DNA from: Deltaproteobacteria bacterium
GTDB taxonomy: Bacteria > Bdellovibrionota_F > JAHFAK01
Direction: 5' to 3'
DNA: 64,000 nt
Assembly (NCBI GenBank): GCA_023250585.1
Contig: JAHFAK010000001.1
Coordinates: forward strand, 232-64,231
Below are positions 24,506 to 60,511 of the stretch, one piece after another. A program made the position numbers and the translations under genes. The notes under the pieces are model-generated. The model searched no databases, had not been told where the DNA came from, and saw only the letters and a program-made list of their open reading frames with translations. How positions within the stretch are numbered: position 1 is the stretch's first letter; each line of letters begins with the position of its first letter.

Positions 24506-24540
24506 ATACTATTATTGTATATACTCTTAAAAAATTCTTA

Positions 24541-30288: not shown

Positions 30289-30999
30289 CTATAAGAGAAA
30301 GAGTTTTTCTCTTTCTCTTTGTTGTTCTATTTCTTTGATTTTATTGACTCGTGTAACAAAAGCATCAAAATTGCCTTGTATAAGATTATGTTCGCCGAGT
30401 ATCGAAAAAAGACGAGGCATTGTACTCATGTATATAGGGTCCATTTTTAAAAAATCAGCAGCAAAGTGGTAGCCTAATTGTTGAGGTTCCATGCATGAAA
30501 AAAAATCTTTTAAAATTTTTTTTTCATGCTCACACGCAAGTGAAAGACGTACATCATAGTAAGAATCTACCCACGGTGGAGTAAAATCAACATAAGCCAG
30601 TTCGACTCCATTCCATACAAAGTTTTTAATGTGAGGATCAAAATTCAATCGAGCGTTTTGTGCTTTACGGAGAATACTAAAAATCCTGTCGAGAACTTTT
30701 TTTTCCGGGAGCAGATCATTAGGTGCTATTTTCCTCATATATTGTAAAATATTTGGACCTTTAAACTCACATATATAGATGAGACGTTCTTGATTTGCTT
30801 CTGATTTATATATTTCTGGTACGGGAATTCCAGCACTTGTTAGTTTTGTAACGTAGTGAATAATAGCTTTCTCAAGATCACACCAGTGAATTCCCAAGTG
30901 AACATTTAGGCGAGTTTCCTTACGGATACATTCACGACCTTCAAAATGTACTGTAGAAAATTTAGAATCTTGAACGCTATAACGATTTAATTCTTCCAT
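30289..30999 (-). CDS. hypothetical protein with weak protein-kinase-like / phosphotransferase fold features
   Basis: RLNFDPHIKNFVW resembles the HxD-x4-N catalytic loop, and AYVDFTPP a DFG-like metal loop, of APH/choline-kinase/Kdo-kinase enzymes. Weak. Confidence 0.3.
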   Translation of the reverse strand: MEELNRYSVQDSKFSTVHFEGRECIRKETRLNVHLGIHWCDLEKAIIHYVTKLTSAGIPVPEIYKSEANQERLIYICEFKGPNILQYMRKIAPNDLLPEKKVLDRIFSILRKAQNARLNFDPHIKNFVWNGVELAYVDFTPPWVDSYYDVRLSLACEHEKKILKDFFSCMEPQQLGYHFAADFLKMDPIYMSTMPRLFSILGEHNLIQGNFDAFVTRVNKIKEIEQQREREKLFLL

Positions 31000-32036: not shown

Positions 32037-32062
32037 ATTAATTCCTTTCGTAAAGAGCATTA

Positions 32063-32764
32063 TTATTGTATATTCTTTGATCGAGGATAATTCAAGAAAC
32101 TCATGCTGAGCCACAGTATTGATGAAATTCCATAAAAAATAGTTACAACAAATGAAATAACTTTTAGATCCCACCCACAAACAATAGTGATTCCTAAAAA
32201 AAGAGGAAGTAAAGCTAACATAAACCGTACTGAAAGAAATGAATATTTGTTATAGTATAAATGAACAAATGTTCCTATAAAACCTTGAGAAGGCATTTCT
32301 TTTACTGCCAGTGGAACAAAAATGATGAGCACTCCGCTTGAAAAAGCTGCGAGTAGAATTAAGTAATAGCTCTCTGTATAAATCCCAAAAAGGACAATGA
32401 GCATCAACCGAGCAAGATTACAGCCCAAATCATCAAGAAGGTGCCCAAGCATACTACAACTGTTTGAAGCTTTAGCTATAGGACCATCAGCAAAATCAAC
32501 AAAGATAAGAAAATAAATGCAAAAGATTCCAATAATGGGAAGCAGAACTACTCCATTCATAGCTGTCACAAGAAAACAATATCCAATGAACACAAGAAAA
32601 ATTGCAGAAACATCAAGCACGTTGGCGGTTATCCCAATTTTGTAAGCAAAAAAAGCAAACTGCAGTGCAATCCATTTCACAAGATTAGTCGTAAAATCAA
32701 ATTGTTTTCTGTCAAAAACTGATCTTTCAGGAAACTGTTTAGCTGTAAATTGAGTAAATGTCAT
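32063..32764 (-). CDS. CDP-alcohol phosphatidyltransferase-family membrane enzyme
   Basis: DFADGPIAKASNSCSMLGHLLDDLGCNLAR contains the D-G-x2-A-R/K...G-x3-D-x3-D signature. 6 TM helices. Confidence 0.7.
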   Translation of the reverse strand: MTFTQFTAKQFPERSVFDRKQFDFTTNLVKWIALQFAFFAYKIGITANVLDVSAIFLVFIGYCFLVTAMNGVVLLPIIGIFCIYFLIFVDFADGPIAKASNSCSMLGHLLDDLGCNLARLMLIVLFGIYTESYYLILLAAFSSGVLIIFVPLAVKEMPSQGFIGTFVHLYYNKYSFLSVRFMLALLPLFLGITIVCGWDLKVISFVVTIFYGISSILWLSMSFLNYPRSKNIQ

Positions 32765-33993
32765 AATGTAGTTCCTTCCATGAGTTCAAGAAAACGATCT
32801 GCTGAAATTGACCATGAATAATGCTTTTCGGTAATCGAACGGATATCTTCTGCTCGCATAACATACCTTTCTCGATTTCGACAAAAATCCTCTATTTTAT
32901 TACCTATGCTTTGAGGATCACATCCATTAATAATCCACTCTTTGTTATAGCGCTTAAGAATTTCTGGAGTTGCCCCATTGTCAGTGCCAAGCACAACAAG
33001 TCCTGAGAGTAATGCTTCAACAGTTGCAAGACCAAATCCTTCAGCACCTTGCGTAGGAAGAATAAAAGCATCCGCAACTTGATAGTAATGAGCTAACTCT
33101 ATTTCAGAAATTCCACTGACAAGGCGGACAGAATCTTTTAGAGAAAGTGAGTCTATGTACTGACGAATTTTCGTTTCCATCACACCTCGTCCAACAATTA
33201 TTATAAAAAATGAAACTCCTTTTTTTTTGAGCCCTGCAAGGGCTTCGACAAGTTTATCAACTCCTGTCCGAGGTTTCAAACCACGTGCTGTTATAAAAAG
33301 AATCTGCTCTAACGGAAGATTAAGTTCCTTACGAAGTTTTATCTTTAATGCATTATTAGTAATCGGAGTATACAGTTTTTCATCTGCTCCACCTGGAACA
33401 ATTTTAATCTTATCTTTAACTCCATTTCGGCCAATTGAAATACAACGATCACGTGCATACTCACTGTGAACCAAAACAAGATCTGCTTTGCTAATAACTG
33501 AAATAGCAATGCGATCGAAAAAATGTCCAATAATCTGTACTACTGGATTTTTTGGATAATTATATAAAAGTTCCGAATAAACATCACTATGAAAATCATA
33601 TATAATTTTTGCACGAGGCCACCATCGTTTTGGATTAAAACCTATCATCCACCATGGATTATGAACCCACACAACATCTATATTTTCATACTGCGATGCC
33701 ATCTTCTTCTGAGCACTATAGGATTGTACTGCAGTAACAAGAGGCCATAACATATGAGTGAGATCGCCTCTTTTAGGAATAGAAACTCGGAAATAGTGCA
33801 TATTTTCGACTATTTCATATGAAGAATATTTATGACTGTATTTCCGGGTAAGTATAATAACTTCATGGTTTCGATATGCTAATTCTCGTGAAATATTGTA
33901 TACAAGCTTAGGTAAGCCGCTATGGCGATCAGGATAAATTCCGGGTGTAAGAACAAGTATCTTCATTCTAGTTATTTTTTTTATGCCCAACAA
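32761..33993 (-). CDS. GT4-family glycosyltransferase (GT-B, retaining)
   Basis: C-terminal PTQGAEGFGLATVEALLSGLVVLGTDNGATPEIL is the EX7E region of Glycos_transf_1. Confidence 0.85.
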   Translation of the reverse strand: MLGIKKITRMKILVLTPGIYPDRHSGLPKLVYNISRELAYRNHEVIILTRKYSHKYSSYEIVENMHYFRVSIPKRGDLTHMLWPLVTAVQSYSAQKKMASQYENIDVVWVHNPWWMIGFNPKRWWPRAKIIYDFHSDVYSELLYNYPKNPVVQIIGHFFDRIAISVISKADLVLVHSEYARDRCISIGRNGVKDKIKIVPGGADEKLYTPITNNALKIKLRKELNLPLEQILFITARGLKPRTGVDKLVEALAGLKKKGVSFFIIIVGRGVMETKIRQYIDSLSLKDSVRLVSGISEIELAHYYQVADAFILPTQGAEGFGLATVEALLSGLVVLGTDNGATPEILKRYNKEWIINGCDPQSIGNKIEDFCRNRERYVMRAEDIRSITEKHYSWSISADRFLELMEGTTL

Positions 33994-35668: not shown

Positions 35669-36262
35669 TTATACAAGAAAAGAAATTTCTTGAGCTATTC
35701 TATGAGTATCACGTTGACCAATGATACGATTATAAACTAAAGATACTTTCTTGGCAGTTTTTGTCTCAAGATCATAACTAAGACAACCAACAATTGGTTT
35801 ATAATAAACATGAAGCGTACAGGCACGACGATTGTTAATTGCAGGATTCTCTAATTGATGAATCCCGATCTCATCATCAATATAAGAAACGTCTCCCCTA
35901 TTATACGTTTCTTGAAGTAATGGTGTAAGGTCGCCTTTAAAGTCAATGGATTTTACATAAACATAATTTTTACTCTCTATAGTCCCTCGTAGAACAGTCA
36001 TACAACAATGCTGCCCTTCATGATCATGAATTGGTGTTTTTTGCCCTGGTTCCCAACATAGAATAAGTATTTCAAAAAATTCATTTTTAAAAATAAGATT
36101 CCGGGTATAATGAGATTGATGAAAATAATATAAATTTTCCAAGGAACATTCAAAAAGTTTATATTGATGCATGAGTTCTAAAATTCTTTCATTTTCTATA
36201 GCTAAGGATGGAGAGAATAATCGAGAAATTTTCTGAATAAATTCTCTCAGTTGAGTTAGCAT
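35669..36262 (-). CDS. cysteine-dioxygenase-type-I-like cupin (thiol dioxygenase family)
   Basis: ILILCWEPGQKTPIHDHEGQHCCMTVLRG closely parallels mammalian CDO [29 protein letters not shown] (the 3-His iron site HxH...H). Confidence 0.7.
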   Translation of the reverse strand: MLTQLREFIQKISRLFSPSLAIENERILELMHQYKLFECSLENLYYFHQSHYTRNLIFKNEFFEILILCWEPGQKTPIHDHEGQHCCMTVLRGTIESKNYVYVKSIDFKGDLTPLLQETYNRGDVSYIDDEIGIHQLENPAINNRRACTLHVYYKPIVGCLSYDLETKTAKKVSLVYNRIIGQRDTHRIAQEISFLV

Positions 36263-36373: not shown

Positions 36374-38353
36374 TTAATACATTCGGGGAAGAGCATTAAT
36401 AGTTTTTAGCACTTCTTTATGATTAACACGTATCACATCGAGATATTCTAATATAGACTCTTTGCGAGGATAATTTTCTACTTCTATAAGCTTTAATGCA
36501 TCTGACCGATCGATGTGATGTTCACGTATTTGATTTGAACGAAAACAATCATTTTCGCTAAAACCGCATATCGTTCTATACACATAGTTATAGAAAGCAG
36601 CGGTTCCATCACCTATACGCCATGTAGTACTTGTATCTTTCGCTATCTCCCAATTATATTCATTAATTAAGATATCATTTATAATTTTTTCATTCCATGG
36701 AACATATTTATATAAATAAACATGGTCTTGCCGAATAAAATAATAACAAAGATAAGCCCAAAAAGTATCGATGATAGAATTATTAAGATACCGAGGATTA
36801 AGAAGATATTGCTTCATATAGTAATAGAGAATCTTAATCTTATTAAAGTTAGAAATAGTTATATGTCGTCTACCTTGAGACAGATCTTTGACATATCCAA
36901 TATTATTAATTCCTGAAAAACCTGCTTTAAAGCCTACATGCTCTAAGAAATTTTGACAAAAGATTAAGAGCTGTATTCCCGTATCTTTTTTTATCTTGTT
37001 CGCATAATAGAAAAATTGTTTATCTCCTGCCATCAATAATGGGATCATTCCAAGAACTGGCTGATGAATCCAGGCATTAATATTTTTTCTGATATTATCC
37101 CTCTTTTTTTTGATATCGGCTGAAACAAGAATATGCTCAATACCAAGTTTTCCACAGACTCTAGCTTGATTTCGTCTGCCAATATCGGTAATTATCCCCC
37201 AATCATATGAATAGGCAATGGGATTCATACCAAATTCTTTTTTAATAAGATGCAGACCATAACTGCTGTCGCGTCCACCGCTAAAGGCAACAATGCAATC
37301 TGGATTACCGTTATTTTGGCGATGCTCATCTAAAATTTGAAGGAACTTGTCCTTTCCCTGTAATTTGATATTTTTGTAAGAATGACAGTAATTACAAACT
37401 CCTTTCTCATCAAAGCTAATGAAAGGCATAGTTTCTGTAAGTATACAGATGGAACAACGCTTTAAATGGTAATTTTGAGGATAAAGCCATAGATTTTCAT
37501 TATCATTGAACTCCGTATTTTCTACTGCATTTTTAAAAGCATTCCCATTCTTTTGAGAAAATATGCGAGATTGACATTTATTAGAGTTATCTAACAAAAA
37601 ATTCTCTCTATGAAGAGTATCAAGGTTCATGATAATTGCCTGATGAGCACCTACATGAAAAATTTCTAATTTATTTTCAAAAGATTTTAATATCCCACAA
37701 GACTTAATTCGTTTTAGCATTGAGTATTCAGATGCAAAAATGAAGATTTCTTGGTTTGAATCAGCCATATAATAGAGAGATCCATTATTCGTAGCTAGAA
37801 TTAAATTTTTGTTTATACTATCTATCAAAGCAGTAGAAACAGTGCCTTCTATTTCACTATACGTTAAACTAAGTGATTGCGCATAAGAATGATTTCTACA
37901 TAAATGAGAAAAAATTTTCAGAAAGATTTCTGTATCTATGGTGTGTTTTTTTTCTAAAAACGAGTATTTATCCCATAGCATATCATCATTGACAATAATT
38001 CCATTATGAATACAGTAAAAAGAATGTTCTTCAAGGGGTTGATTATTATCTTGATGGATACTGCTCCCATCCGTAACTAATCGTGTATGGCCAATAACGC
38101 AGCTTGGGTGTATATTATCTGTCTTTTTACTGCCTATATTAAATAATTCTTTAAACTCTCGACTCTTAATAAACACAGAGGCCTTTTCTCTAGATTTTTT
38201 AATTGTTACTTTATTATCTTTAAAGATTGCAATTCCGGCAGCATCTTTCCCGCGAGACTGAGAGTATTGAAACAACTTTTGAGTGGTTTCTTGGAAACTA
38301 TCACAAGGAATAATATCTGCTTCTCTTAGTGCTATACCAAATATACCACACAT
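36374..38353 (-). CDS. fusion: class-II (Ntn) glutamine amidotransferase domain + zinc-ribbon/PP-loop N-acetyl-sugar amidotransferase domain (WbuX/WbpG/PseA-like)
   Basis: N-terminal MCGIFGIA (Cys2 nucleophile), GHTRLVTDG, HNGIIVND as in AsnB/PurF. Mid-protein CSICILTETMPFISFDEKGVCNYC zinc ribbon followed by PP-loop IVAFSGGRDSS, as in TIGR03573-type amidotransferases. Confidence 0.75.
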   Translation of the reverse strand: MCGIFGIALREADIIPCDSFQETTQKLFQYSQSRGKDAAGIAIFKDNKVTIKKSREKASVFIKSREFKELFNIGSKKTDNIHPSCVIGHTRLVTDGSSIHQDNNQPLEEHSFYCIHNGIIVNDDMLWDKYSFLEKKHTIDTEIFLKIFSHLCRNHSYAQSLSLTYSEIEGTVSTALIDSINKNLILATNNGSLYYMADSNQEIFIFASEYSMLKRIKSCGILKSFENKLEIFHVGAHQAIIMNLDTLHRENFLLDNSNKCQSRIFSQKNGNAFKNAVENTEFNDNENLWLYPQNYHLKRCSICILTETMPFISFDEKGVCNYCHSYKNIKLQGKDKFLQILDEHRQNNGNPDCIVAFSGGRDSSYGLHLIKKEFGMNPIAYSYDWGIITDIGRRNQARVCGKLGIEHILVSADIKKKRDNIRKNINAWIHQPVLGMIPLLMAGDKQFFYYANKIKKDTGIQLLIFCQNFLEHVGFKAGFSGINNIGYVKDLSQGRRHITISNFNKIKILYYYMKQYLLNPRYLNNSIIDTFWAYLCYYFIRQDHVYLYKYVPWNEKIINDILINEYNWEIAKDTSTTWRIGDGTAAFYNYVYRTICGFSENDCFRSNQIREHHIDRSDALKLIEVENYPRKESILEYLDVIRVNHKEVLKTINALPRMY

Positions 38354-42877: not shown

Positions 42878-44266
42878 CTAAATTTTAATTTGAACTAGAT
42901 CATATTCCTGATATTGAATAGAGTTAAGTTTTATGATCAATCCAGTAATTATAAAAGTACTTGGGGTGAGATAGAAGGTTCTTACAATGCCGGTCATGAC
43001 GAGCGCTAGGTAAATTCCTGTTAGAAACAACGGCAGATGATCAATGGTATCTTTTGGCTGACGAAAATAGGTTCGGAGCCCATACCCTATAGTAAAAATA
43101 ACAATTAAAATTTGAGTTAAGAAACCCCAGATTCCAGTATCACCAAGAAAGATAATAAAATTCGAGTGGGACCCATATTTAACCGGATACCGCTTATAGA
43201 CAAAATCATCAAAATTTTCCGAGCCTCTCCCAAAACCAAGATTGTCAAAACCATGTATCATCGCAAGTTTCATATGACTCGAAAAAAATTCAATCTGAAT
43301 AGATCTCATACTTTCAATAAATGGATTTACTCTTTTAATAAGATGGATTGGCGTCTTAATTGTTGTTGTCTCGCTTAATTTAATTTCTGATCTGTCAAAA
43401 AAAGATGAAGTATTGCTCACATAGAGGCCTATTATAATAAACAATACAATAAATGAAGTTTTATAAAAATTAAATACCAAAGGAAAAAACCGACGATCTT
43501 TCGAACGGTAGAAAATATAAATGAATGATAAGAACGCTCCAAGGCCGAGATATGAACTACGTGAAACCGAAAGCACTATCGTCACAAAGAATAGAGAAGT
43601 TATAAACATAAATTTTAGTGTTTTATATTTATATATACCATATATTGATAAACTGAAAGGAATAATCAACCATGGGCCAAAACCATCTCCAATGAACCCT
43701 GTCATATAGGCAAAGCCAGGGATAGAGAAAGCACCTGTTCCATATCCAAATGCTTTCATCCCAGATTGTCCCCGGAAGAGTTCTTTCAATGGAGGAAAAA
43801 TCATTTCATTAAAAAAATAATATCCAATAAGCTGAGTTAATCCCATAACACAATTGAAAATCCCTCCTAGAATAAAAAACTTAATTGCTTTTTCTACATG
43901 CTGTCTCGTCTTTAGAAAAAAAATCACGTAGAAAAAGCAAAGCATATTTTCGAGGAAATACCCTCCTGCACCACGTAAAGCATCTATAGGACTATCAGCA
44001 ACCACAGCTCCGAACATACAAATAAGAAAGAAAATAAAATAAAGAGCCCCTATTATACTAATCTGGGGTACTTGTTGACGAACACAAGCAATCAGAATTA
44101 CAATGGGTAAAGCAAGGATGACAAGAAGATTAATTGGTGTTAGTCCTACATTCCCAAGTTCAACGGCATAGACACCAAATCCAGAAAGAAAGATTATAAG
44201 ATAAATAAAGCTAGCTCCAGGATTTATTCGTACTATCGGTAATTTAAAGCTTGCTACTTTTTCCAT
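42878..44266 (-). CDS. O-antigen polymerase/ligase-like polytopic membrane protein (Wzy/WaaL superfamily)
   Basis: 462 aa, at least 10 TM helices, with a larger loop near the C-terminal third. Context in an O-antigen locus. No strong motif. Confidence 0.45.
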   Translation of the reverse strand: MEKVASFKLPIVRINPGASFIYLIIFLSGFGVYAVELGNVGLTPINLLVILALPIVILIACVRQQVPQISIIGALYFIFFLICMFGAVVADSPIDALRGAGGYFLENMLCFFYVIFFLKTRQHVEKAIKFFILGGIFNCVMGLTQLIGYYFFNEMIFPPLKELFRGQSGMKAFGYGTGAFSIPGFAYMTGFIGDGFGPWLIIPFSLSIYGIYKYKTLKFMFITSLFFVTIVLSVSRSSYLGLGAFLSFIYIFYRSKDRRFFPLVFNFYKTSFIVLFIIIGLYVSNTSSFFDRSEIKLSETTTIKTPIHLIKRVNPFIESMRSIQIEFFSSHMKLAMIHGFDNLGFGRGSENFDDFVYKRYPVKYGSHSNFIIFLGDTGIWGFLTQILIVIFTIGYGLRTYFRQPKDTIDHLPLFLTGIYLALVMTGIVRTFYLTPSTFIITGLIIKLNSIQYQEYDLVQIKI

Positions 44267-45168
44267 TGCAACCCCATTTTTCCCCGTAATCCATCAAAGA
44301 ATCCTAACCAACAGGTCCATCCATAATGAGGATATCCCTGAAAGGTTCTTATAACAAATTTCATTGGTAATTCTAACAACCCCATGTAAAAAACAGAAAA
44401 GATATAGTTCATTGTTGTTCCATATTTTCGCGCTAGGTAGAGTCTATTTCTTTGAATTAAGTATCCTTGAAACGTATTAAATTGTTGTGGAAGAGATTTG
44501 TGCCGTACACGACACCTGAGATCAACATAGGCTTTTAACCCTGCTGTACGTATTTGAAAACCAAGATCAATCTCTTCCCCATACATAAATAATTTTTCAT
44601 CTAACCGAATTCCCTTTTGCAAAGCTTTTTGAGAAAAAAGAATCAATGCTCCTTGCACATAATCTACCTCTAATACTTCATTGTCAGGCATATTATACGG
44701 AAGAGTTCTTTCCCAATGACCGCGAGCTTTTAAAAATGAAAATCCTTTCCCCCCTATAGTTCGTATTTCTTTTGTTTGATAATTCTCTTCTATAACTCCA
44801 ACCATTCCACAATTGGGCATCTTTTCGGCTGTTTCAACGAGGTGTTGAAGCATATCAGGGCCACAGATAAGATCATGATTACTAATTAAAACATAATTAA
44901 ATCCTTCACGAAGTCCACGATCAAAAGCCCAATTATTACCACCTGTATAACCATGATTTTGATTAAGGACAACAACTTCAAGATCAGGAAAGGTATTTTT
45001 GATAGTTTCTCCAACAGGATTTGGAGATGCATTATCAACAACTTGAAGATAAAAATTCTGATAACTCTGATTTCGAAAGCACTTTACTGCCTCGAGAGTG
45101 TCTTCAACGTTGTTATATGTTAGTATTGATACAAGAACTTTAGGGTCTGTTTTATATTCTCTTTTCAT
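44254..45168 (-). CDS. GT2-family glycosyltransferase (rhamnosyltransferase-like)
   Basis: LVSILTYNNVEDTLEAVKCF, VVDNASPN, and a later DLRCRVRH region typical of soluble GT2 O-antigen transferases. Confidence 0.8.
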   Translation of the reverse strand: MKREYKTDPKVLVSILTYNNVEDTLEAVKCFRNQSYQNFYLQVVDNASPNPVGETIKNTFPDLEVVVLNQNHGYTGGNNWAFDRGLREGFNYVLISNHDLICGPDMLQHLVETAEKMPNCGMVGVIEENYQTKEIRTIGGKGFSFLKARGHWERTLPYNMPDNEVLEVDYVQGALILFSQKALQKGIRLDEKLFMYGEEIDLGFQIRTAGLKAYVDLRCRVRHKSLPQQFNTFQGYLIQRNRLYLARKYGTTMNYIFSVFYMGLLELPMKFVIRTFQGYPHYGWTCWLGFFDGLRGKMGLQWKK

Positions 45169-45204: not shown

Positions 45205-47136
45205 CTAATTTCTTACTGAGAAATCTTTTACCTTGGGAAATATTTTCTCGCTGACGAAAAAATCAAAATTCTTGGAATGACGAGATATACATTGAATGAG
45301 CTTCTCTTTTAAATTAACATCAATTTTTGATCCGTTTAAATAAATAATGATTCGTTCATAAAATTCACCGCGAGCAATACCATGTCTTTCTTCCTGAAGA
45401 ATATGTATATTTTCAAGGTTAATCCTTGAAGTAGCACGTTCTCGAGAAGAAGCAAACAATATATATCCGCCTAATCGATCAATTATTTTCAGTTGATAAC
45501 TATCAAGATATACTAATTCAGCAATAGCATAATCTTTTTTATTTTGTACTCCATCAGCATCAAATAATGAAGAACCATGTCGGAATGAAACATCATTAAG
45601 ATGATATAAGGATGACAAAGTTGGGAGAAGGTCAATAGATGATTCAAGCAATTCATCGCACTCACCATTCTGAAGAGGAAACTCATTTGAATACAAAAGA
45701 AATGGAGTTCTAATTTCTTCATCAGATAAATTATTTCCTAAAGGATGAGTAAATGAATATCCATGATCCGAAGTAAGAATTACGCTTACATTTTCTCTTT
45801 TTTCAAGAAGACTGAAGACTTCTCCTAACTCTTGATCAACCTCTCGGAGCTTGTCGCGATAGCAATCATCAAGAAATGCAAAATCTTCAGCGTTTAAGTT
45901 GTTTTGAAATGACCTTTTAACGTAATGGTTGATGGTTTCCTGAAAAAGTAAATAGTTTTTTTGTTGTCTTCCCGAACTATGAAGGTAGGGAAAATGTGTA
46001 TCAAAAATATGAACAAATCCAAAAAAAGGAATATCAGAAAAATTCCTTAAATAGTTTTTTAGTTCCCTTAGCTCTAAATATACATTATTTGGTCCTTTTT
46101 CTCCTGGAGAATTATATTTTCCTTCAACAGTTTGGCTAAAACTAAAATGTTCAAACCCTCTATGATGCCCAAGTGCTTGATTACATCGACGATGAGAGAC
46201 AGAAGCATACGTATAAAATCCCTTATTACGGAAAAGCTCAGCAAGTGTAGGGATAGTTCGAGATAATGGAGAGCTATAACGATCGGGATCTACCACATTG
46301 TGATTAGAAGCATAACGAGATAAAGACATAGATGCAAACGTAGGTAAAGTCCAATTACTTTGTGCAAAACTATTTTTATAATAAATTCCTTTTTTAAAAA
46401 AATGATCAATTGCGGGAGTTTCAGTTCTCATGGGATTATAAATACCCAGATCGTTGGGTCTAAGAGCATCGAGAATAAAAACCAAGAGCATTTGTGGTAT
46501 CTGTTTTTTTTTACGAATTATAGGAGATGAAATACAAACGCGGCTATCATTATGATCAACTTTCCAGCTCATTGTAACTGCATCCTCTACATTAAAAGAA
46601 GAAGGAAATTTGAATTCAAAAAGATCCCAATGATTTTCAAGAGACGAAATTTTTTTATGAAGTATCATTTGTTTTTGCTCTTTTTGTTCAAGAAATACCT
46701 GTAATGACCCCTTCCGAGATGAGAGTTTTTGACAACCAATAAAAAGACGAATTGTTTCAATTTCTGATAGATGAACTGTCATTGGGAGATCGCCTTGTGC
46801 GGCATAAGCAGTAGAAAAACTATTCTTAAAAGTATGATCAATAGAATATTTTGCATACATATCAGGTGCTGACGGCAAAAAATCTGGAATCAGTAATATT
46901 TCTTCATTAAGAAACGATGAAAAATTTTTTCTCAAAGCCTGAAGTGTATATTTAAAAGTAGCATAACTAAGAAAATATAATGATCTTGTTTTATTAATTT
47001 TCACTCGTTCACTGGTTTTTATATCAAAGAAAGAAACCAATTCTCCATCTCCATAGCGAAGAATGCGAATAAACCTTAAGATTTGCTCACGGATTTTTTT
47101 TAGTTTTTTTTTCATAAACTTAAGAATAGCATCCAA
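45205..47136 (-). CDS. alkaline-phosphatase-superfamily protein, sulfatase-like fold with Thr in place of the formylglycine Cys
   Basis: MLLVFILDALRPNDLGIYNP...TPAIDHF matches the sulfatase N-terminal metal-site block. The expected C-x-P-x-R is SNWTLPTFA (Cys to Thr, Arg to Phe). About 280-aa N-terminal extension without TM helices. Confidence 0.55.
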   Translation of the reverse strand: MDAILKFMKKKLKKIREQILRFIRILRYGDGELVSFFDIKTSERVKINKTRSLYFLSYATFKYTLQALRKNFSSFLNEEILLIPDFLPSAPDMYAKYSIDHTFKNSFSTAYAAQGDLPMTVHLSEIETIRLFIGCQKLSSRKGSLQVFLEQKEQKQMILHKKISSLENHWDLFEFKFPSSFNVEDAVTMSWKVDHNDSRVCISSPIIRKKKQIPQMLLVFILDALRPNDLGIYNPMRTETPAIDHFFKKGIYYKNSFAQSNWTLPTFASMSLSRYASNHNVVDPDRYSSPLSRTIPTLAELFRNKGFYTYASVSHRRCNQALGHHRGFEHFSFSQTVEGKYNSPGEKGPNNVYLELRELKNYLRNFSDIPFFGFVHIFDTHFPYLHSSGRQQKNYLLFQETINHYVKRSFQNNLNAEDFAFLDDCYRDKLREVDQELGEVFSLLEKRENVSVILTSDHGYSFTHPLGNNLSDEEIRTPFLLYSNEFPLQNGECDELLESSIDLLPTLSSLYHLNDVSFRHGSSLFDADGVQNKKDYAIAELVYLDSYQLKIIDRLGGYILFASSRERATSRINLENIHILQEERHGIARGEFYERIIIYLNGSKIDVNLKEKLIQCISRHSKNFDFFVSEKIFPKVKDFSVRN

Positions 47137-47163: not shown

Positions 47164-48516
47164 TTAATGAGATACAGGCGATTTTCTGAAATGAAATACT
47201 TTGAAATAGTGAATTAGTTTATTCCATCCAAAAGTCCATAAAAACTTAAAGTCCTCCCTTTTTGGGATAAGAAATTCCTTGTATAATCCTGAACTAATTT
47301 TTTTATAAATTATAACAGTGATAACAGATGTTACAAGAAATGAAATTGATACTGCTAGTGCTCCTCCAATAATTCTGAAAGGAGGAATTAACATGAAGCA
47401 GAGTACTATTTGTAAAATGAGAGGAACTATTTGTATGTACATTGGAATCTCTGGTCTACCAATACCAAGAAAATATTGCCGTAAAAGACTTGAAGGACCA
47501 AAAAGAATAAGACCCGGCAAAATTATAAAAAAGGCATCAACACTTGGAAGGAAAGCACGTCCATATAAAATCAAAGTAGCGGGATATATTATCAACGCTA
47601 AAAAGATTCCAGCAATAATAAATGTAATAAAAGATAGTCTAAATACACGTTCCGTTATTTTCCGTGAATCGCAATTCATACCATTTAAGTTTGATACGTG
47701 AGGAAAAAGAATGGTACCAATTGCATTGCTAATGCGATTGAGATATTCCGCTTTTCCTTTTGCCATTGCAAAAAATCCTAATGCCGCAGGAACGAGTAAA
47801 ATAGCCGTCACCATGTTCGAAAAATAAATAGTCAAAAAACCAATCGCTTCAGAAAGGTAGATTTTCATACTATATCTCAGTAATTCTGGAAGGCGAGCAC
47901 AAGACGTTTTCCAACGCCAAGGAATTTTTCTATGTACAACACTTATTCCATAAATCAACGCAATCAAATTGGATACATGAAAAGCAATGGCAACTGACCA
48001 CAGATTCATATTAAAGACTACAAGAAGAACAATATTGACAATACCCTTACAAGAATCGTGGATAAGCATTAACCGATTATACGACTTTACATCTTCCTGT
48101 GAGAGAAAAATATACATATAATTTCTCAAAAGAAAACGAAAAGGTATATAAGCAAAAACAAAACTTATGAAAAATGATGATAAGGTAGTCTTGAAAAAAA
48201 ATTCTGAAAGTATCTCTTGACCCATAGAGAGTAATAAAAAAATGCCGACCCCAAGACCAAAACCAACGTAATTAATAAGACTCAAAAGCTCTGCTGGATC
48301 TATTGTTTTTTTACCTAAAAAATGTACTGCAGCAATCTCTAAACGTGGTCCGCCAAAAACTCGACAGTAATTGATGACAAGCTCAAACATTGCCCATAAC
48401 CCAAAACCAGAAGGTCCTAGCTTACGCGCAACAATTGCTCCAGTTACAATATGGATACCTGTAAAGAGAAGTTCGCGATTAAAGAGACTAAATGATTTAT
48501 CTGCAAGTGATGACAT
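47164..48516 (-). CDS. second Wzx-like polysaccharide flippase (MOP/PST family)
   Basis: 450 aa, about 12 TM helices. N-terminal LFTGIHIVTGAIVARKLGPSGFGLWAMF resembles Polysacc_synt family openings. Confidence 0.6.
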   Translation of the reverse strand: MSSLADKSFSLFNRELLFTGIHIVTGAIVARKLGPSGFGLWAMFELVINYCRVFGGPRLEIAAVHFLGKKTIDPAELLSLINYVGFGLGVGIFLLLSMGQEILSEFFFKTTLSSFFISFVFAYIPFRFLLRNYMYIFLSQEDVKSYNRLMLIHDSCKGIVNIVLLVVFNMNLWSVAIAFHVSNLIALIYGISVVHRKIPWRWKTSCARLPELLRYSMKIYLSEAIGFLTIYFSNMVTAILLVPAALGFFAMAKGKAEYLNRISNAIGTILFPHVSNLNGMNCDSRKITERVFRLSFITFIIAGIFLALIIYPATLILYGRAFLPSVDAFFIILPGLILFGPSSLLRQYFLGIGRPEIPMYIQIVPLILQIVLCFMLIPPFRIIGGALAVSISFLVTSVITVIIYKKISSGLYKEFLIPKREDFKFLWTFGWNKLIHYFKVFHFRKSPVSH

Positions 48517-48522
48517 ATAAAA

Positions 48523-49455
48523 TTATAATAAACCTCCAAGATATTTTATTAAACGTTTCATGAGTCCCGTATAATAATCTTTTCTAAAATTCATTTCACA
48601 TTTAAAAGCCAATAGCCAATTAAAACGATATGATTCCTCATAGCTTTTGACGTGTTTTCTTGTTACAAGATCAATATATCCTGATTCTCTTTTTTTAAGA
48701 TACCTAAAATTCTTTATCGTACAATCCCAAGGAGTAGCAAAATACCAAGCATTGGGAGAATATTGAATTGCAAAATGCTTTCTATCTAATTTATGGCAGA
48801 GTTCAAAAATACGATTAGTACCGACCGCATCAGCAAGTGCCGACGGAAAAGATTGATTACCAATATACAAATTGCATCCTTTTAATATACATGCGTGTTC
48901 ATAATTATCATATGGGCGATAATATTCTACCTGTACATCATCAAATTCTTTCCATTCATCTTCAAGACGCGAAACAAACACAATATTTTTCTTTCCAAGA
49001 ACATCGATAAGTTTTTTCCAATTAAAAAGTGGGTTTGGAATTCTTACTGTTTTCGAAGTTCTGCGATGAATGACTATCTTATCAGAAAATCTATGATCAG
49101 CAGGAACATCGATCCATCCATAAACAGGCTCATTCAATGTGAGCCTATGAGATCTACTCATTACATCGAGAAGTGTCGTACGATATAACGATTTACTTTT
49201 TCGAAATTGATCAAGATTAACATCAATAGGTTCCCCTTTATGAATATTGAAAGAACTAATATAATTTTGAGAACTCACAAGTTTTCCACATGACTCAAGA
49301 ACGCTTTCAAGAGGTTCTTCAAATTCGCCCTTAGTCACAAATACGTTACCCCCTCCCATTGCTTTCACGATATAGAGGGTCATAATGAGATCTCCCTTTT
49401 TACCGGAAGTGATAAAATTATATTTAGTAGGAAACATATTCTTTTTCTTCAACAA
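48523..49455 (-). CDS. GT9-like glycosyltransferase (heptosyltransferase family fold), putative
   Basis: N-terminal FITSGKKGDLIMTLYIVKAMGG (GT9 I-R-SLGD-I-PLL-AL-like). C-terminal NLYIGNQSFPSALADAVGTNRIFEL resembles the GT9 GNDSGPMHLAAALG-P-V-L motif. Confidence 0.45.
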   Translation of the reverse strand: MLKKKNMFPTKYNFITSGKKGDLIMTLYIVKAMGGGNVFVTKGEFEEPLESVLESCGKLVSSQNYISSFNIHKGEPIDVNLDQFRKSKSLYRTTLLDVMSRSHRLTLNEPVYGWIDVPADHRFSDKIVIHRRTSKTVRIPNPLFNWKKLIDVLGKKNIVFVSRLEDEWKEFDDVQVEYYRPYDNYEHACILKGCNLYIGNQSFPSALADAVGTNRIFELCHKLDRKHFAIQYSPNAWYFATPWDCTIKNFRYLKKRESGYIDLVTRKHVKSYEESYRFNWLLAFKCEMNFRKDYYTGLMKRLIKYLGGLL

Positions 49456-49831
49456 GCTCTGAACCTACCTGATCGTTAATTTTTCTTTTAATGCGAGCTC
49501 GTTCATCATTTGAGCGATATTCATCACGAGTTAGCTCAATAAATTCTTTGCCAAATTTTTTTTCAGCTTCTGCGCGACGCATAAAGTCTTCAATATCCCA
49601 CAATCGTTCATTTATTTTTTTTAATGCTATTTGTTCATTTGGATAAGAGATCTTATGCTCCTTTACAAGACTCATTAATATTTCATATTCATGGCGAACA
49701 TTATCTTTTTTATTTTTATCTTTCATTCTTTCGAGTTTGATTTCTAAAATTGTAATTTTGTCAATTAATTCACCAACGGAAACAGGAACCTTGATCATAG
49801 CTACTCCTTTTTTGATTGATAATCTTCCCAA
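49424..49831 (-). CDS. hypothetical charged/coiled-coil small protein
   Basis: 135-aa ORF, Lys/Glu-rich, no motif recognised. Position-based call only. Confidence 0.3.
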   Translation of the reverse strand: MGRLSIKKGVAMIKVPVSVGELIDKITILEIKLERMKDKNKKDNVRHEYEILMSLVKEHKISYPNEQIALKKINERLWDIEDFMRRAEAEKKFGKEFIELTRDEYRSNDERARIKRKINDQVGSELVEEKEYVSY

Positions 49832-50772
49832 TACCAGGAAACTGTTTTTTTTAAACCATCTATGAGAGAAGTTTTTGGTTTAAAACCAAGTTGTTGCAAT
49901 TTAAGCGTGTCAGGACATCGACGAGGTGTCGAACCTAAAAGCCGTTCCGAAGTAAGAACTTTTATAGTATACCCACAAACATCTGAAAGTTTTGCAATTA
50001 GATCTTTAATAGTAATTTCTTCCATAGTACCTATATGGTATATATCATTTTTGTTGGTACCAAGAGTACTCATAATAATAGCTTGTGCGGCATCTTCTAC
50101 GAAAATAAATGATCTCGTTTCCTCTCCGTTGCCTTGAATCGTGATTGTTATTTCTTCTGTAGTCATATTGCTGTGATGTGCTTCAACAATTTTTTTTACG
50201 AGCTCCGGAATTACATGCTCATATCCCATACACGGACCATAGACATTATGAGGACGAAAGATAACCCAGCGAGTATCTGAATTACGAAGATAGTTAATCG
50301 TCAAAAGCTCACTTGCAATTTTACCTCCACCATATGAAAAACGCGGATTTGTTACATCAGGAATTTTCATTTCAACTTCTTCAGTAGTCGGAATATGATC
50401 AGCTTTTTGATACACTTCAGAAGAAGATGCCAAAAAGAAATGAGGAACTTTATTCTTAAGACATGCTTTGAGAATATTATGGGTACCTATAATACCAATT
50501 TCTAAAATTTTGTCGGGAATAGTATAAAAATACTTTGTACCATTAATATATGCAAGATGATAAATCGCTTCAACACCGCAGGTAATCTCACAAAGACCTT
50601 CAAAATCAAGTACATCACCTGTCACTAACTTAATACGCTCATGACCATGAAGCATATCAAGATTACCGCGAGTATTGTTATCAAATGCTAAGACTTCATG
50701 TCCTTGTTCTGCTAAACTATACGTTAAGACACGGCCGATGAAGCCTCCTGCTCCTGTAACAAGTAGCTTCAC
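49801..50772 (-). CDS. NAD-dependent nucleotide-sugar epimerase/dehydratase (extended SDR)
   Basis: MKLLVTGAGGFIGRVL, YGGGKIASE (YxxxK). 323 aa. Confidence 0.85.
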   Translation of the reverse strand: MKLLVTGAGGFIGRVLTYSLAEQGHEVLAFDNNTRGNLDMLHGHERIKLVTGDVLDFEGLCEITCGVEAIYHLAYINGTKYFYTIPDKILEIGIIGTHNILKACLKNKVPHFFLASSSEVYQKADHIPTTEEVEMKIPDVTNPRFSYGGGKIASELLTINYLRNSDTRWVIFRPHNVYGPCMGYEHVIPELVKKIVEAHHSNMTTEEITITIQGNGEETRSFIFVEDAAQAIIMSTLGTNKNDIYHIGTMEEITIKDLIAKLSDVCGYTIKVLTSERLLGSTPRRCPDTLKLQQLGFKPKTSLIDGLKKTVSWYWEDYQSKKE

Positions 50773-52001
50773 ACACGTTCCTTTCTTAATACGACCTGGT
50801 TTTTACCAAGGCAATTCCAAATATCAATGACAAGGGCTTCTGGTTTAAGAGCTTTCCAAATGATATTACTGTTACTAAATTCCTTATGATTAACTGCTAC
50901 AAAAACAATATCCGTTCCTTGCAACGCTTCTGAAATATTTCGGTTAGCATATCGTTCGATCACCTGTGTTTTGAGATTTGGTTCACAAAGAACAATTTCA
51001 TGAGGAACTTTTCTCTCAATATAGCGAATAAGCTTTGGAACAAGACTATCACGTGTATCGTCTGAATCTCTCTTGAAGGTATACCCAAGAACTGCAACCT
51101 TTGCTCCTTTAATCTCAGCATGGCGAGCGGCAAGTTCTATAAGATGATAAGGCATAAATTCATTAATTTTCCATGAAGCAAGTAAAAGATCCGAACCCGG
51201 AGAAAGTTCGTTAATCATACCAAAGTCTTTACGAAGACATGTCCCCGCGGTAAGCCCTGGCCGATAAATAAAACCACGAGGATAATCTTCATTTGCAAGT
51301 CTTAAAATATCATAAATGTTTTGATCGAACTCATTTGCATAAATCGCAAATTGGTTTGCAACTGCAAATTCAATATACCTCGCAGAATTGTTGAAGAGCT
51401 TAACTAATTCAGCAGAAATATAGGTGGTTTTAAACATTTTAACATTAAAGGGAGCGAATATCTCTATTGCTTTTTCATAGCTTAATTCATCTTCACAGCC
51501 AATTATTTGAGGAAGCGTTTTCAATTCTGCCAAAGCTTTGTGCTCTGCCAAACGCTCTGGACAAAATGCAAGCGCTATATTTTTTCCTATACGAAATGAT
51601 GAATGTTCTTCCAAAAAACTTTTCACATATTCAGTTGTACGTGGAGCTACAGTAGAACGTAAAAAAATTGATTGTCCTTTCTGCATGTGAGGAATTAAAG
51701 ATTTTATGACTGCTTCAACGTTTGAAAGATCAGTTTCAATATGAGGCATTAAAGGAGTTCCCACTGTAATAAAGATATAATCGACATTTTTTATTATACT
51801 AATATCATCGGTAAATTGAATCCGTGAATGGGTTAAAAGATCTTGGCAGCCTGGTTCTTCAAAGGGCATAATACGATCTCTTAAAATTTTCAAAAGGGCT
51901 ATGTCTTTATCAATTCCCGTTACAGAAAATCCCAAGGACTCAAGAAAAAGCCCAAAAGGAAGACCCACCCTCCCCGTTCCAATGATTGCTATTTTTTTCA
52001 T
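50769..52001 (-). CDS. UDP-glucose / UDP-N-acetyl-hexosamine 6-dehydrogenase family enzyme
   Basis: MKKIAIIGTGRVGLPFGL Rossmann. Catalytic-Cys block GFIYRPGLTAGTCLRKD. 410 aa. Confidence 0.85.
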   Translation of the reverse strand: MKKIAIIGTGRVGLPFGLFLESLGFSVTGIDKDIALLKILRDRIMPFEEPGCQDLLTHSRIQFTDDISIIKNVDYIFITVGTPLMPHIETDLSNVEAVIKSLIPHMQKGQSIFLRSTVAPRTTEYVKSFLEEHSSFRIGKNIALAFCPERLAEHKALAELKTLPQIIGCEDELSYEKAIEIFAPFNVKMFKTTYISAELVKLFNNSARYIEFAVANQFAIYANEFDQNIYDILRLANEDYPRGFIYRPGLTAGTCLRKDFGMINELSPGSDLLLASWKINEFMPYHLIELAARHAEIKGAKVAVLGYTFKRDSDDTRDSLVPKLIRYIERKVPHEIVLCEPNLKTQVIERYANRNISEALQGTDIVFVAVNHKEFSNSNIIWKALKPEALVIDIWNCLGKNQVVLRKERV

Positions 52002-59590: not shown

Positions 59591-60511
59591 CTAACTCCAA
59601 TCATGATCATTGTAAAAAGATCGAGAGATAGGCTCTACCTCACGTCGAATTCGGTCTATCTCAGCAGCAGTAAGTCTACTTTTCCAAATATCAACTGTTT
59701 TACGACTATCTCTTCTACTATTATCTTTTTTTCCATGAAATTCTACTACATTTAATGGAGAAGTATAAAGATTCATTATCTCTTCTGTTTTCTTTGTAAA
59801 TGATAGATTGAATTTCTCGTAAAGTTTTCTAAATTCCTCAATAGGTGCAGAGGCTAAATCCTCATGTCTAACAAAAATCCATTCAGGATGTTCCCTTGTA
59901 AGAATTTCAACCGTTCCATACAGAGCTTTCCATTGAAGAATTCCCATACCTATAATATCAGGTCTTTGAGGATGATTTTGAATTTCTTTCTCAAATCTAA
60001 ATAAATATCTTTTCATTAAATTTTTCTGATCAAGAAAATGATTAAAGTTAAATCCCCAATTAAGACGTTTTAAGCTACTTACGAAGGATGCTGGGTGTCT
60101 TATAACAACGATAACATGCGTATTAAATTTTTTAGCAAACCATTCGGTAGAAAAAAGACCAATAGGTTCGATAAAAATCTGCGGAAATCTAGAATTAAAC
60201 TGGCGAAACAGAGATCTAAATTTTCTTTTGGTTACACGTCCAAAATCTCGGAGTGATTCTATTTTGCTCAGGCTTTTAAAAAAATCATACTTCATATCCA
60301 CACACTTTTGGATATAGGGATAAAATTGCTTCTCGTTTTCCTGAGAGATATAGGTGTACATCCATGGAAAAGGTTGACATCCAATCTCTGAAGCAACATT
60401 AAAAATTTCCTCATCTCGCATAAGAAATTCTCCTGAGATAGAAAGCATTCTTCCAACCCAGCTTGAACCAGATCGATGTGATCCTGTAATGTAGATATGT
60501 TTTTTTATCAT
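59591..60511 (-). CDS. PAPS-dependent sulfotransferase, Stf0-like
   Basis: 5'-phosphosulfate-binding loop YITGSHRSGSSWVGRML (Mtb Stf0 ICSTQRSGSTWLCELL). 3'-phosphate-binding region VVIRHPASFVSSLKR. 306 aa. Confidence 0.75.
   Translation of the reverse strand: MIKKHIYITGSHRSGSSWVGRMLSISGEFLMRDEEIFNVASEIGCQPFPWMYTYISQENEKQFYPYIQKCVDMKYDFFKSLSKIESLRDFGRVTKRKFRSLFRQFNSRFPQIFIEPIGLFSTEWFAKKFNTHVIVVIRHPASFVSSLKRLNWGFNFNHFLDQKNLMKRYLFRFEKEIQNHPQRPDIIGMGILQWKALYGTVEILTREHPEWIFVRHEDLASAPIEEFRKLYEKFNLSFTKKTEEIMNLYTSPLNVVEFHGKKDNSRRDSRKTVDIWKSRLTAAEIDRIRREVEPISRSFYNDHDWS

Follow-up and report, generated by a model that had tools for sequence, protein, structure and literature searches.

We analysed a window of 64,000 nucleotides that contains a gene for a sulfatase-fold protein, named SulfL here. 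The open reading frame at 45205..47136(-) is real. Counted from the mechanical TTG start at 47136, it encodes 643 aa. Gene callers on identical metagenome contigs chose the ATG at 47115, which gives 636 aa, and the N-termini of the homologues agree with that choice. This ATG is probably the true start. Residue numbers follow the 643-aa numbering (TTG start) throughout. The genes of interest in the window are as follows.

45205..47115, reverse strand: SulfL gene
47164..48516, reverse strand: Wzx-type flippase, immediately upstream of SulfL; a conserved neighbour
48523..49831, reverse strand: DUF6165 gene and gene for a 310-aa protein, a conserved pair upstream of Wzx
44254..45168, reverse strand: GT2 glycosyltransferase, downstream of SulfL; a conserved cassette partner
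42878..44266, reverse strand: Wzy-like polymerase, downstream of SulfL; a conserved cassette partner
60531..62723, reverse strand: fusion of PK-barrel, PUA_2 and ATP sulfurylase; a PK-like gene lies near SulfL in relatives
59591..60511, reverse strand: canonical PAPS-type sulfotransferase (Sulfotransfer_1/_3); the L007 copy is 53% identical
5114..6859, reverse strand: PUA_2, ATP sulfurylase and APS kinase, the second sulfate-activation gene

The initial annotation described a locus full of sulfate chemistry, and the gene content bears this out. The window encodes two ATP sulfurylases, an APS kinase, a sulfotransferase and a cysteine dioxygenase. A sulfated glycan is the probable product of the locus. 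The pair upstream of Wzx is present in the window and in L003, L004, L005, L007 and L028. Its 310-aa member has no Pfam or NCBIfam match. The C-terminal tail of Wzx is rich in Lys and Arg, which suggests that the tail lies in the cytoplasm.

In eight loci, whose GC contents range from 33% to 57%, SulfL has Wzx on one side and GT2/Wzy on the other, which argues for a glycan substrate. Part of this synteny is a single cassette spread by transfer, and the loci are not all independent. In one protein (P0002), from a single metagenomic contig, SulfL is joined in frame to the flippase C-terminus. Copies without any Wzx also occur, in L099, L006 and the marine group. Contig Ga0155275_105 carries two glycan modules with one SulfL paralogue in each. 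Its second copy is translationally coupled to GT4 and CDP-alcohol phosphotransferase genes. The presence of one paralogue per glycan module argues for a glycan-specific rather than a housekeeping enzyme. The L006 contig is phage-like, and a copy there would fit surface-glycan conversion. The recurrence of Wzx and PAPS-synthesis neighbours in unrelated loci is new relative to the initial annotation, as is the CBM-like fold of the N-terminal domain.

SulfL belongs to the sulfatase branch of the alkaline-phosphatase (AP) superfamily. It matches the Pfam family Sulfatase (PF00884) with an E value of 5.8e-34 over residues 217-510, and its second match is Phosphodiest (PF01663; E=2.4e-10). The AF2 model has a pLDDT of 86.9 and a pTM of 0.88. 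It contains both the alpha/beta fold of PF00884 and the C-terminal subdomain. The best structural matches are carbohydrate S1 sulfatases. NCBIfam names for SulfL (PehA, choline sulfatase, arylsulfatase and phosphopentomutase) were rejected, as every match fell far under its cut-off. The protein is organized as follows.

46903..47115, reverse strand: N-terminal basic helical segment, aa 8-78, with a conserved R..LRYGD motif and no transmembrane (TM) helix
46510..46857, reverse strand: family-specific beta-sandwich domain, aa 94-209, with a CBM-like jelly-roll fold
45607..46491, reverse strand: sulfatase/AP-superfamily catalytic core, aa 216-510, from Pfam and the structure model
45271..45531, reverse strand: C-terminal beta subdomain and helices, aa 536-622, as in S1 sulfatases

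The N-terminal extension had been put at about 280 aa. The catalytic domain begins near residue 215, and the extension is about 210 aa long, with helices followed by the jelly roll. Within it, K96 and W170 are invariant and K104 and N105 are near-invariant. K534 and E540 are invariant at the start of the C-terminal subdomain. The N-domain gave no Pfam match at E<=10 in the 16 members checked. An exhaustive profile search of 1.84 billion representatives did not find it outside the SulfL family. Its assignment to a known domain family was rejected on these searches.

The protein appears to be soluble and cytoplasmic, as judged from its sequence. Its top Kyte-Doolittle 19-residue window scores 0.92, in keeping with the earlier claim that it has no TM helix, and it has no signal peptide. 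The N-domain of every family member is free of TM segments, except in the flippase fusion P0002. A concealed TM helix or signal peptide was ruled out by family-wide hydropathy. These features, the flippase fusion and the K/R-rich flippase tail together point to the cytoplasmic side as the probable location of SulfL.

The active site was placed with a profile from 24 family members, aligned to the solved sulfatases 6hhm, 7lha, 7snj and 4upi. Its elements are listed below.

46336..46350, reverse strand: T263-L-P-T-F267, aligned on C-x-P-x-R; T263 is invariant and the presumed nucleophile
46468..46470, reverse strand: D223, first metal ligand, invariant
45763..45768, reverse strand: D457-H458, metal ligands, invariant
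45994..46011, reverse strand: H376-I-F-D379-T-H381; H381 aligns with a conserved sulfatase His

The translation of 46336..46350(-) is TLPTF. In all four profile alignments, W-T263-L-P-T-F267 was placed on (I/S/V)-C/S/FGly-x-P-S-R. Thr263 falls on the formylglycine position and Phe267 on the Arg of CxPxR, and the single-sequence alignment agrees. The motif QSNWTLP(T/A/S/V)FAS was found in every full-length relative recovered. The initial annotation had read the motif in this way and had raised the possibility of mis-registration, against which the profile and family alignments speak. It had also proposed loss of the metal ligands as a check, and the ligands D223, D457 and H458 proved invariant. 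Its statement that the metal site is well conserved holds for these residues and fails for the second Asp of the D-D pair, which reads D223-A224.

Although the 24 sequences are only 35-47% identical, D223, T263, D457, H458 and H381 do not vary among them, and this argues for catalysis by SulfL. H315, H376 and D379 are also invariant or nearly so across the family. Conserved basic residues are H315, R317, H325, R326 and K534. The extra D-x-H (D379-T-H381), common to the Thr-type clade described below, could be a second metal or anion site. Both sulfate-binding Lys of the sulfatases are missing from the family. Relative to PAS, K113 is replaced by Ser, the K375 region is deleted or reads Gly/Asn, D14 is replaced by Ala and N318 by His. 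The equivalents of D13 and D317 are kept.

The SulfL family is very rare. Only 8 full-length clusters were found in 1.84 billion representatives, and one full-length relative, a 'Deltaproteobacteria' MAG, was found among 185,579 species genomes. Outside the family, SulfL is closest to a large clade of Thr-type proteins that carry the motif WTLPSH (E values of 1e-24 to 1e-12). Cys-type sulfatases are further away (E>=1e-11). The clade has database names such as 'sulfatase' and 'arylsulfatase A-like enzyme', and its members often have TPR or TM N-termini. It shares D-x-x-R-x-D, W-T-L-P, F-D-x-H and S/G-D-H-G with SulfL. SulfL differs in having Phe rather than His at +4 from the Thr, DA rather than DT, no G-H loop after the DHG motif and a unique N-domain. 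Thr had been taken earlier as a distinguishing mark. The residue is there, but the claim was overstated, as the SulfAtlas authors counted Thr at the formylglycine position in 30 of 59 PF00884 Pfam seeds (PMC5066984). Thr at the nucleophile position is ordinary in PF00884. What is unusual is the rarity of SulfL, its unique N-domain and its neighbourhood of Wzx and PAPS genes.

The S1 sulfatases (6hr5 S1_25, 6hhm S1_7, BT1596 5g2t and human ARSA) have the C-terminal beta subdomain in common with SulfL. SulfL keeps their first metal Asp, the D of the D-N/H pair and two active-site His. It differs in the change of Cys/Ser to Thr, of the Arg of CxPxR to Phe and of DD to DA, and in the loss of the Lys pair. 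It thus lacks the (C/S)-x-(P/A)-x-R motif, the full DD...DN metal set and the sulfate-binding Lys pair. It has no signal peptide, it carries the extra 210-aa N-terminal domain, and no maturase gene was found near it. Its locus is biosynthetic, not degradative. SulfL cannot be a formylglycine sulfatase, as had been concluded before, since the Cys/Ser and Arg of CxPxR are missing by alignment, the Lys pair is lost and no FGE_sulfatase or anSME match was found among the window ORFs scanned.

SulfL could still be a hydrolytic or 'editing' sulfatase that trims the nascent glycan in the cytoplasm, with Thr or a keto residue made by a radical SAM enzyme as nucleophile. The carbohydrate S1 sulfatases among the top structural matches and the probable sulfated product of the locus fit this idea. 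So does the radical SAM/SPASM gene that precedes the L029 and L030 homologues by about 500 nt. That gene was rejected as a Thr maturase. It is limited to these two loci of the marine subgroup rather than family-wide, and it scores far below all curated maturase cut-offs. The missing motif and Lys pair, and the missing FGE/anSME gene in the window, also tell against an editing sulfatase. PAPS-dependent sulfation and its removal in one compartment would be futile. A Thr-sulfate intermediate would be a dead end for hydrolysis, and a hydrolytic sulfatase role is chemically disfavoured. We consider this role very unlikely.

A closer likeness is to LtaS/LtaP, EptA/EptC/MCR-1, OpgB, GacH and BcsG. 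SulfL has their Thr nucleophile position and their carboxylate and Asp-His single-metal site, and the set D223, T263 and D457-H458 matches in pattern, as the earlier comparison with Thr-type AP-superfamily transferases had suggested. The LtaS/EptA/OpgB group acts on glycans or glycolipids, as is proposed for SulfL. The nearest relatives outside the SulfL family often have 4-5 N-terminal TM helices and share the multi-TM plus catalytic domain architecture of LtaS and EptA. The LtaS/EptA enzymes draw on outer-leaflet phospholipid donors, and their extracytoplasmic catalytic domain is accompanied by 4-5 TM helices. In contrast, SulfL is soluble, has neither TM helix nor signal peptide and is presumably cytoplasmic, a difference that had already been pointed out for LtaS, EptA and OpgB. 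It also has the CBM-like N-domain and a sulfatase-type C-terminal subdomain.

On this basis we tentatively favour, at somewhat below an even chance, the reading that SulfL is an active Thr-nucleophile metalloenzyme. Its substrate would be the lipid-linked repeat unit of a sulfated polysaccharide, decorated on the cytoplasmic face before it is flipped. On grounds of homology, the transferred group would most likely be a phospho-ester, a phospho-alcohol as in LtaS, EptA, OpgB and GacH. Several points count against this reading. We know of no characterised Thr-type PF00884 transferase that is cytoplasmic. Phospho-alcohol transfer in the cytoplasm is known from enzymes with TagF-, LicD- or CDP-alcohol-transferase folds, and proteins of these types are already encoded in the window. 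The strongest independent context signal (L099 and L098) points to PAPS chemistry rather than phospho-ester chemistry.

SulfL could also be a non-catalytic sulfatase-fold protein that binds the lipid-linked glycan or the flippase and regulates or scaffolds export. PbgA/YejM offers a precedent. It is a sulfatase-fold LPS sensor, a 5-TM inner-membrane protein with a periplasmic domain, and its catalytic activity is debated. Close linkage of the SulfL gene to Wzx, with one fusion of the two, would fit such a role, as would the loss of several catalytic residues of the sulfatases. However, SulfL is soluble, unlike PbgA/YejM, and has a complete, invariant nucleophile and metal set. The nucleophile, the three metal ligands, H315, H376, D379 and H381 are invariant or nearly so at 35-47% identity, as in enzymes. 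The copies in L099, L006 and the marine group do without Wzx. We give a non-catalytic role hardly any likelihood.

The sulfate-activation genes around SulfL bear on two further readings. A PK-like gene directly follows SulfL in L003, L004, L005 and L098 and lies one gene away in L007. Hundreds of proteins combine a member of the PK-like family with APS kinase or ATP sulfurylase in a fusion. The order in L098 is ATPS - MTase - Wzx - SulfL - PK - APSK. In L099 it is [PK+PUA_2+ATPS] - APSK - SulfL, with SulfL at the operon end and no GT genes seen in its 11 kb. The common operon is SDR - PK/ATPS - APSK - sulfotransferase (L103), and L099 has SulfL in the sulfotransferase slot. A canonical sulfotransferase is present in the window, in L007 and in L100, where it lies directly upstream of Wzx-SulfL. 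None was found in the sequenced parts of L098, L099, L003, L004, L005 and L028/L034, whose contigs are short or only partly seen. Two candidates from these comparisons were set aside. The 'APS kinase' on L006 was downgraded as PAPS evidence; it matches a PHROGs polynucleotide-kinase family and is only 26% identical to APS kinase. The APS-kinase-like fragment after SulfL in L029 is 46 aa at a contig end and was too weak. Our literature search found no relevant precedent in capsule or O-antigen loci for a soluble sulfatase-like enzyme of the Thr type, and none for PK/ATP-sulfurylase fusions.

SulfL may be a PAPS- (or APS-) dependent glycan sulfotransferase on the sulfatase/AP fold. It would act via sulfo-Thr263 on a sugar hydroxyl of a lipid-linked acceptor held by the CBM-like domain, as a second kind beside the canonical sulfotransferase. 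Such a role is suggested by the differing arrangements in which SulfL adjoins PAPS-synthesis genes (L099, L098 and the PK-like neighbours), by the fusions within the PK-like family, by the slot occupied in L099 and by the loci listed above where no canonical enzyme was found. In addition, the ancestors of the scaffold bound sulfate esters, and two of their His residues remain in SulfL. Canonical PAPS sulfotransferases (PF00685/PF13469) and CysQ are functional analogues with folds unrelated to SulfL; they share its genomic niche beside ATP sulfurylase, APS kinase and PK-like genes (PMC11766843). SulfL has no sulfotransferase-family Pfam match, and its sulfatase/AP fold is not the sulfotransferase fold that bears the P-loop-like 5'-PSB and 3'-PB motifs, which rules out membership of those families and not sulfotransferase activity. 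The chemistry is less favourable. Thr-O-sulfate is a stable alkyl sulfate with poor transfer potential, the accepted reason why sulfatases use formylglycine. Both sulfate-binding Lys are gone, and to our knowledge there is no AP-superfamily sulfotransferase. The canonical enzymes of the window, L007 and L100, and the incomplete contigs elsewhere, also weaken the case. We regard a sulfotransferase as unlikely.

Alternatively, SulfL may be a by-product hydrolase, either a 3'-phosphatase of 3'-phosphoadenosine-5'-phosphate (PAP) that replaces CysQ or a different phosphatase or pyrophosphatase for nucleotides. It would work with the PK-like enzyme, which would turn ADP into ATP, to sustain both PAPS synthesis and sulfotransfer. 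APS kinase and PK-like genes adjoin SulfL, and its basic cluster of H315, R317, H325, R326 and K534 would suit a polyanionic nucleotide. The L006 copy lies near the P-loop kinase with the polynucleotide-kinase family match, and the weak NCBIfam phosphopentomutase match is around the D-H motif. The window ORFs scanned include no CysQ/Inositol_P match, whereas cysQ is part of a characterised gene cluster for a sulfated capsule (PMC11766843). This support was weakened, as the typical PK/ATPS-APSK operons L102 and L103 also have no CysQ, and its absence says little. The 636-aa length, the CBM-like domain, the paralogue per glycan module and the Wzx fusion fit such a hydrolase poorly. Single-metal sulfatase-type sites prefer monoanionic esters over phosphomonoester dianions, and we know of no AP-superfamily PAP phosphatase. 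A hydrolase of this kind seems improbable.

In the reading that we favour, transfer of a phospho-ester to the lipid-linked unit, a divalent metal on D223, D457 and H458 would activate T263. T263 would attack a monoanionic (singly charged) ester donor and form a covalent enzyme intermediate. The enzyme would find this donor in the cytoplasm or in the inner leaflet. The acceptor of the group would be a hydroxyl on the repeat unit carried by undecaprenyl diphosphate, and the CBM-like N-domain may help to hold this unit. Transfer would take place just before the neighbouring Wzx flips the unit, and the polysaccharide served would be sulfated and Wzx/Wzy-dependent. We infer the catalytic activity, location, acceptor and transferred group of SulfL from the features described above.

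Sulfated polysaccharides of bacteria are in demand as materials akin to heparin and carrageenan, but little is understood about them. SulfL marks a conserved but very rare cassette of flippase, SulfL, PK-like protein, PAPS genes, GT2 and Wzy. The cassette is found in uncultured bacteria with GC contents of 33% to 57%, with one copy on a phage-like contig. Transfer of a phospho-ester would make SulfL the first enzyme of the LtaS/EptA type that is soluble and faces the cytoplasm, and would mean that decoration may come before flipping. If it handles PAPS-derived sulfate, it would represent a new enzyme class for sulfation and the first sulfotransferase on the alkaline-phosphatase/sulfatase fold. 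The sulfatase scaffold would then run in the biosynthetic direction, with Thr replacing formylglycine. Removal of PAP would make SulfL a new non-orthologous substitute for CysQ. Each of these outcomes would correct the blanket annotation of such proteins as 'sulfatase' or 'arylsulfatase A-like'.

The sulfatase-fold protein SulfL is encoded at 45205..47136(-). Read from a mechanical TTG start, this open reading frame is 643 aa long, and residue numbers follow it. Gene calls on two identical metagenome contigs start at an ATG at 47115 (636 aa), and homologue N-termini in the family alignment match the equivalent position, so the gene is likely 45205..47115. SulfL matched Pfam Sulfatase (PF00884; E=5.8e-34, residues 217-510) and Phosphodiest (PF01663; E=2.4e-10). 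The predicted sulfatase fold, proposed in the initial annotation, is far beyond chance on these profile matches. All NCBIfam matches (PehA, choline sulfatase, arylsulfatase, and phosphopentomutase) were far under the curated cut-offs. When a profile of the family, built from 24 sequences, was aligned to the solved sulfatases 6hhm, 7lha, 7snj, and 4upi, W-T263-L-P-T-F267 fell on x-(C/S/FGly)-x-P-S-R in all four cases. Positions 46336..46350(-) translate to TLPTF. The initial annotation's placement of T-L-P-T-F on the CxPxR position is therefore correct.

Replacement of the Cys by Thr is frequent in PF00884. According to the SulfAtlas authors, Thr occupies the formylglycine (FGly) position in 30 of the 59 seed sequences, and these 30 cannot be FGly sulfatases (PMC5066984), so the substitution by itself is not new. 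Of the sulfatase catalytic set, SulfL keeps two His, the first residue of the DD pair, and the Asp of D-N/H; the Cys and the motif Arg have been replaced or lost, as have the second residue of DD and the two sulfate-binding Lys. The metal-site block had been described as well conserved; this holds for the first Asp, D223, but not for the second of the DD pair, which is A224. The T-L-P-T-F motif and the loss of the Lys pair rule out an FGly sulfatase, as first claimed.

The family alignment contained sequences 35-47% identical to one another. D223, T263, P265, H279, R326, H376, D379, T380, H381, D457, H458, K534, and E540 were invariant, and H315, R317, and H325 were nearly so. The N-terminal extension has its own invariant residues (K96, W170, and P205). 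SulfL has the full invariant Thr/Asp/Asp-His set, no export signal, and a private CBM-like domain. T263 would be the covalent nucleophile of an active enzyme. An editing sulfatase and a PbgA-like pseudo-enzyme are both very improbable and are the least supported readings. The AlphaFold2 model was confident, with a mean pLDDT of 86.9 and a pTM of 0.88.

Segments of SulfL in the AlphaFold2 model
Residues 2-78, basic helices
Residues 94-209, beta-sandwich
Residues 216-510, alpha/beta core
Residues 536-622, sulfatase-type C-terminal beta subdomain, then helices

The core begins at residue ~216-217, and the extension is ~210 aa long rather than the ~280 aa first given. Its lack of a TM helix was borne out. 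The highest 19-residue Kyte-Doolittle window in SulfL was 0.92, and by hydropathy no TM helix or signal-like N-terminus was present in the SulfL part of any family member.

A search of 5.8 billion protein clusters gave about 25 full-length homologues, and none of their names was informative. One of 185,579 species genomes, a "Deltaproteobacteria" MAG, contained a homologue. The nearest sequences outside the family form a large uncharacterised Thr-type clade with the motifs D-T-x-R-A-D, W-T-L-P-S-H, F-D-x-H, and D-H-G-E. Many of its members have an N-terminal region of 4-5 TM helices or of TPR repeats. In sequence, the Cys-type sulfatases lie farther from SulfL.

Almost all window genes are on the minus strand and make up one very large polysaccharide locus. 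It encodes rmlABCD, two Wzx flippases (19635..21098(-) and 47164..48516(-)), one Wzy, many glycosyltransferases, epimerases and methyltransferases, B12-radical-SAM proteins, a CDP-alcohol phosphotransferase, and a TagF-like protein. The two flippases suggest two glycan modules. The locus had been called full of sulfate chemistry, and the following genes agree with this.

Sulfur-related genes in the window
5114..6859, minus strand, PUA_2 + ATP-sulfurylase + APS-kinase gene
35669..36262, minus strand, cysteine dioxygenase (CDO_I)
59591..60511, minus strand, sulfotransferase
60531..62723, minus strand, pyruvate-kinase (PK) barrel + PUA_2 + ATP-sulfurylase fusion

The gene at 5114..6859(-) is a second sulfate-activation gene, at the opposite end of the locus from 60531..62723(-), and gives the locus two ATP sulfurylases. 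No FGE, anSME, or CysQ was detected in the window. The cysteine dioxygenase gene adjoins one for a 659-aa glutamine-amidotransferase protein (GATase_7/GATase_6; 36374..38353(-)). This pair could point to a uronic acid that bears an amide substituent of the cysteine-sulfinate or taurine type; UDP-glucose dehydrogenase is encoded at 50769..52001. At 22901..28395(-), genes for an FkbM methyltransferase and a PhyH-dioxygenase + Rieske fusion lie between two B12-binding radical SAM genes; this set suggests that a sugar or polyol substituent is C-methylated or oxidised in an unusual way. At 8743..10562(-), a transketolase is split into a gene for its N-terminal half and one for its pyrimidine/C-terminal half, beside genes for a Bac_transf initiating transferase and a DegT aminotransferase.

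SulfL belongs to a recurrent cassette (DUF6165, 310-aa protein, Wzx, SulfL, sometimes a PK-like protein, GT2, and Wzy) in loci of 33% to 57% GC. SulfL directly follows Wzx in the window and in L004, L007, L028, L098, and L100. The two coding sequences overlap in L004, and a methyltransferase separates them in L005. The DUF6165/310-aa pair (48523..49831(-) in the window, with no Pfam or NCBIfam match for the 310-aa protein) is strictly conserved upstream of Wzx in L003, L004, L005, L007, and L028 (48-61% identity). The syntenic metagenome contig Ga0155275_105 (L028/L034) contains both window glycan modules, and each module there has its own SulfL paralogue. The second copy overlaps its neighbors at stop and start codons and is flanked by a GT4 on one side and, on the other, by a set of CDP-alcohol phosphotransferase, GAPDH-like, and HAD genes; this set is present in the window at 30987..33993 but without a second SulfL. 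At L003 8001..11174, a Wzx-type flippase and SulfL form a single in-frame 1057-aa open reading frame (P0002). This fusion is on one metagenomic contig and might reflect misassembly or the loss of a stop codon. The C-terminal tail of the flippase is rich in K and R. Basic Wzx tails are cytoplasmic by the positive-inside rule and published topologies, so the fused SulfL is probably in the cytoplasm. The missing TM domain and predicted location of SulfL rule out the LtaS/EptA architectural class. The predicted target is a lipid-linked repeat unit on the cytoplasmic side.

A stand-alone PK-barrel gene directly follows SulfL in L003, L004, L005, and L098 and is one gene away in L007. Dozens of proteins (~505 aa) join this family to APS kinase. 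Fusions of a related PK domain to ATP sulfurylase, as at 60531..62723, are widespread, with >120 protein clusters (at least 49% identity) whose only names are "sulfate adenylyltransferase" or "pyruvate kinase". Given these fusions, PK-like domains seem to recur as an uncharacterised component of PAPS-synthesis modules in bacteria, where they perhaps regenerate ATP from ADP locally. Two differently arranged loci retain the link between SulfL and PAPS genes: L098 (ATP sulfurylase, methyltransferase, Wzx, SulfL, PK, APS kinase) and L099 (NusG, PK + ATP-sulfurylase fusion, APS kinase, SulfL, then a convergent Wzz gene).

This setting fits a sulfotransferase on the sulfatase fold, and in ordinary PK/ATP-sulfurylase operons a sulfotransferase follows APS kinase (L103). 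The cassettes of L100, L007, and the window also have a canonical sulfotransferase. We know of no sulfotransferase on the sulfatase/AP fold, and the chemistry is awkward, since Thr-sulfate esters donate the sulfuryl group poorly; this reading is unlikely. A PAP phosphatase would fit a gene adjoining APS kinase and PK but not the CBM-like domain, the flippase fusion, or one paralogue per glycan module, and is less likely still. The absence of CysQ is uninformative here, since ordinary operons also lack it.

Some homologues are found in other settings. The marine subgroup neighbors methyltransferase, carbamoyltransferase, AsnB-like, GT2, and radical-SAM genes. A radical SAM/SPASM gene lies ~500 nt upstream of SulfL in L029 (1443..2441) and L030 (769..1782), with a weak SPASM-region match to anaerobic sulfatase maturase far under all curated cut-offs. 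It is conceivable that this neighbor oxidises the Thr to a keto residue; it is not family-wide. L006 8001..9830 (Logan SRR18936877) encodes a homologue (39% identity) flanked by a DnaB-like helicase and a Holliday-junction resolvase on a phage-like contig, which also encodes a small P-loop kinase, Erf, and a replisome organiser. This copy could serve phage-borne conversion of a surface glycan or, alternatively, nucleotide metabolism.

To our knowledge, every characterised Thr-type PF00884 enzyme is a phospho-alcohol transferase. Homology therefore favors phospho-ester transfer, which we tentatively take as the best explanation of SulfL. Genomic context favors PAPS-linked chemistry, and the recurrent link to a flippase and PAPS synthesis is plain. 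SulfL represents a very rare uncharacterised subfamily of soluble proteins, marked out by a unique CBM-like N-domain and by their link to flippase and PAPS genes. There is a modest chance that its activity is of a categorically new kind.
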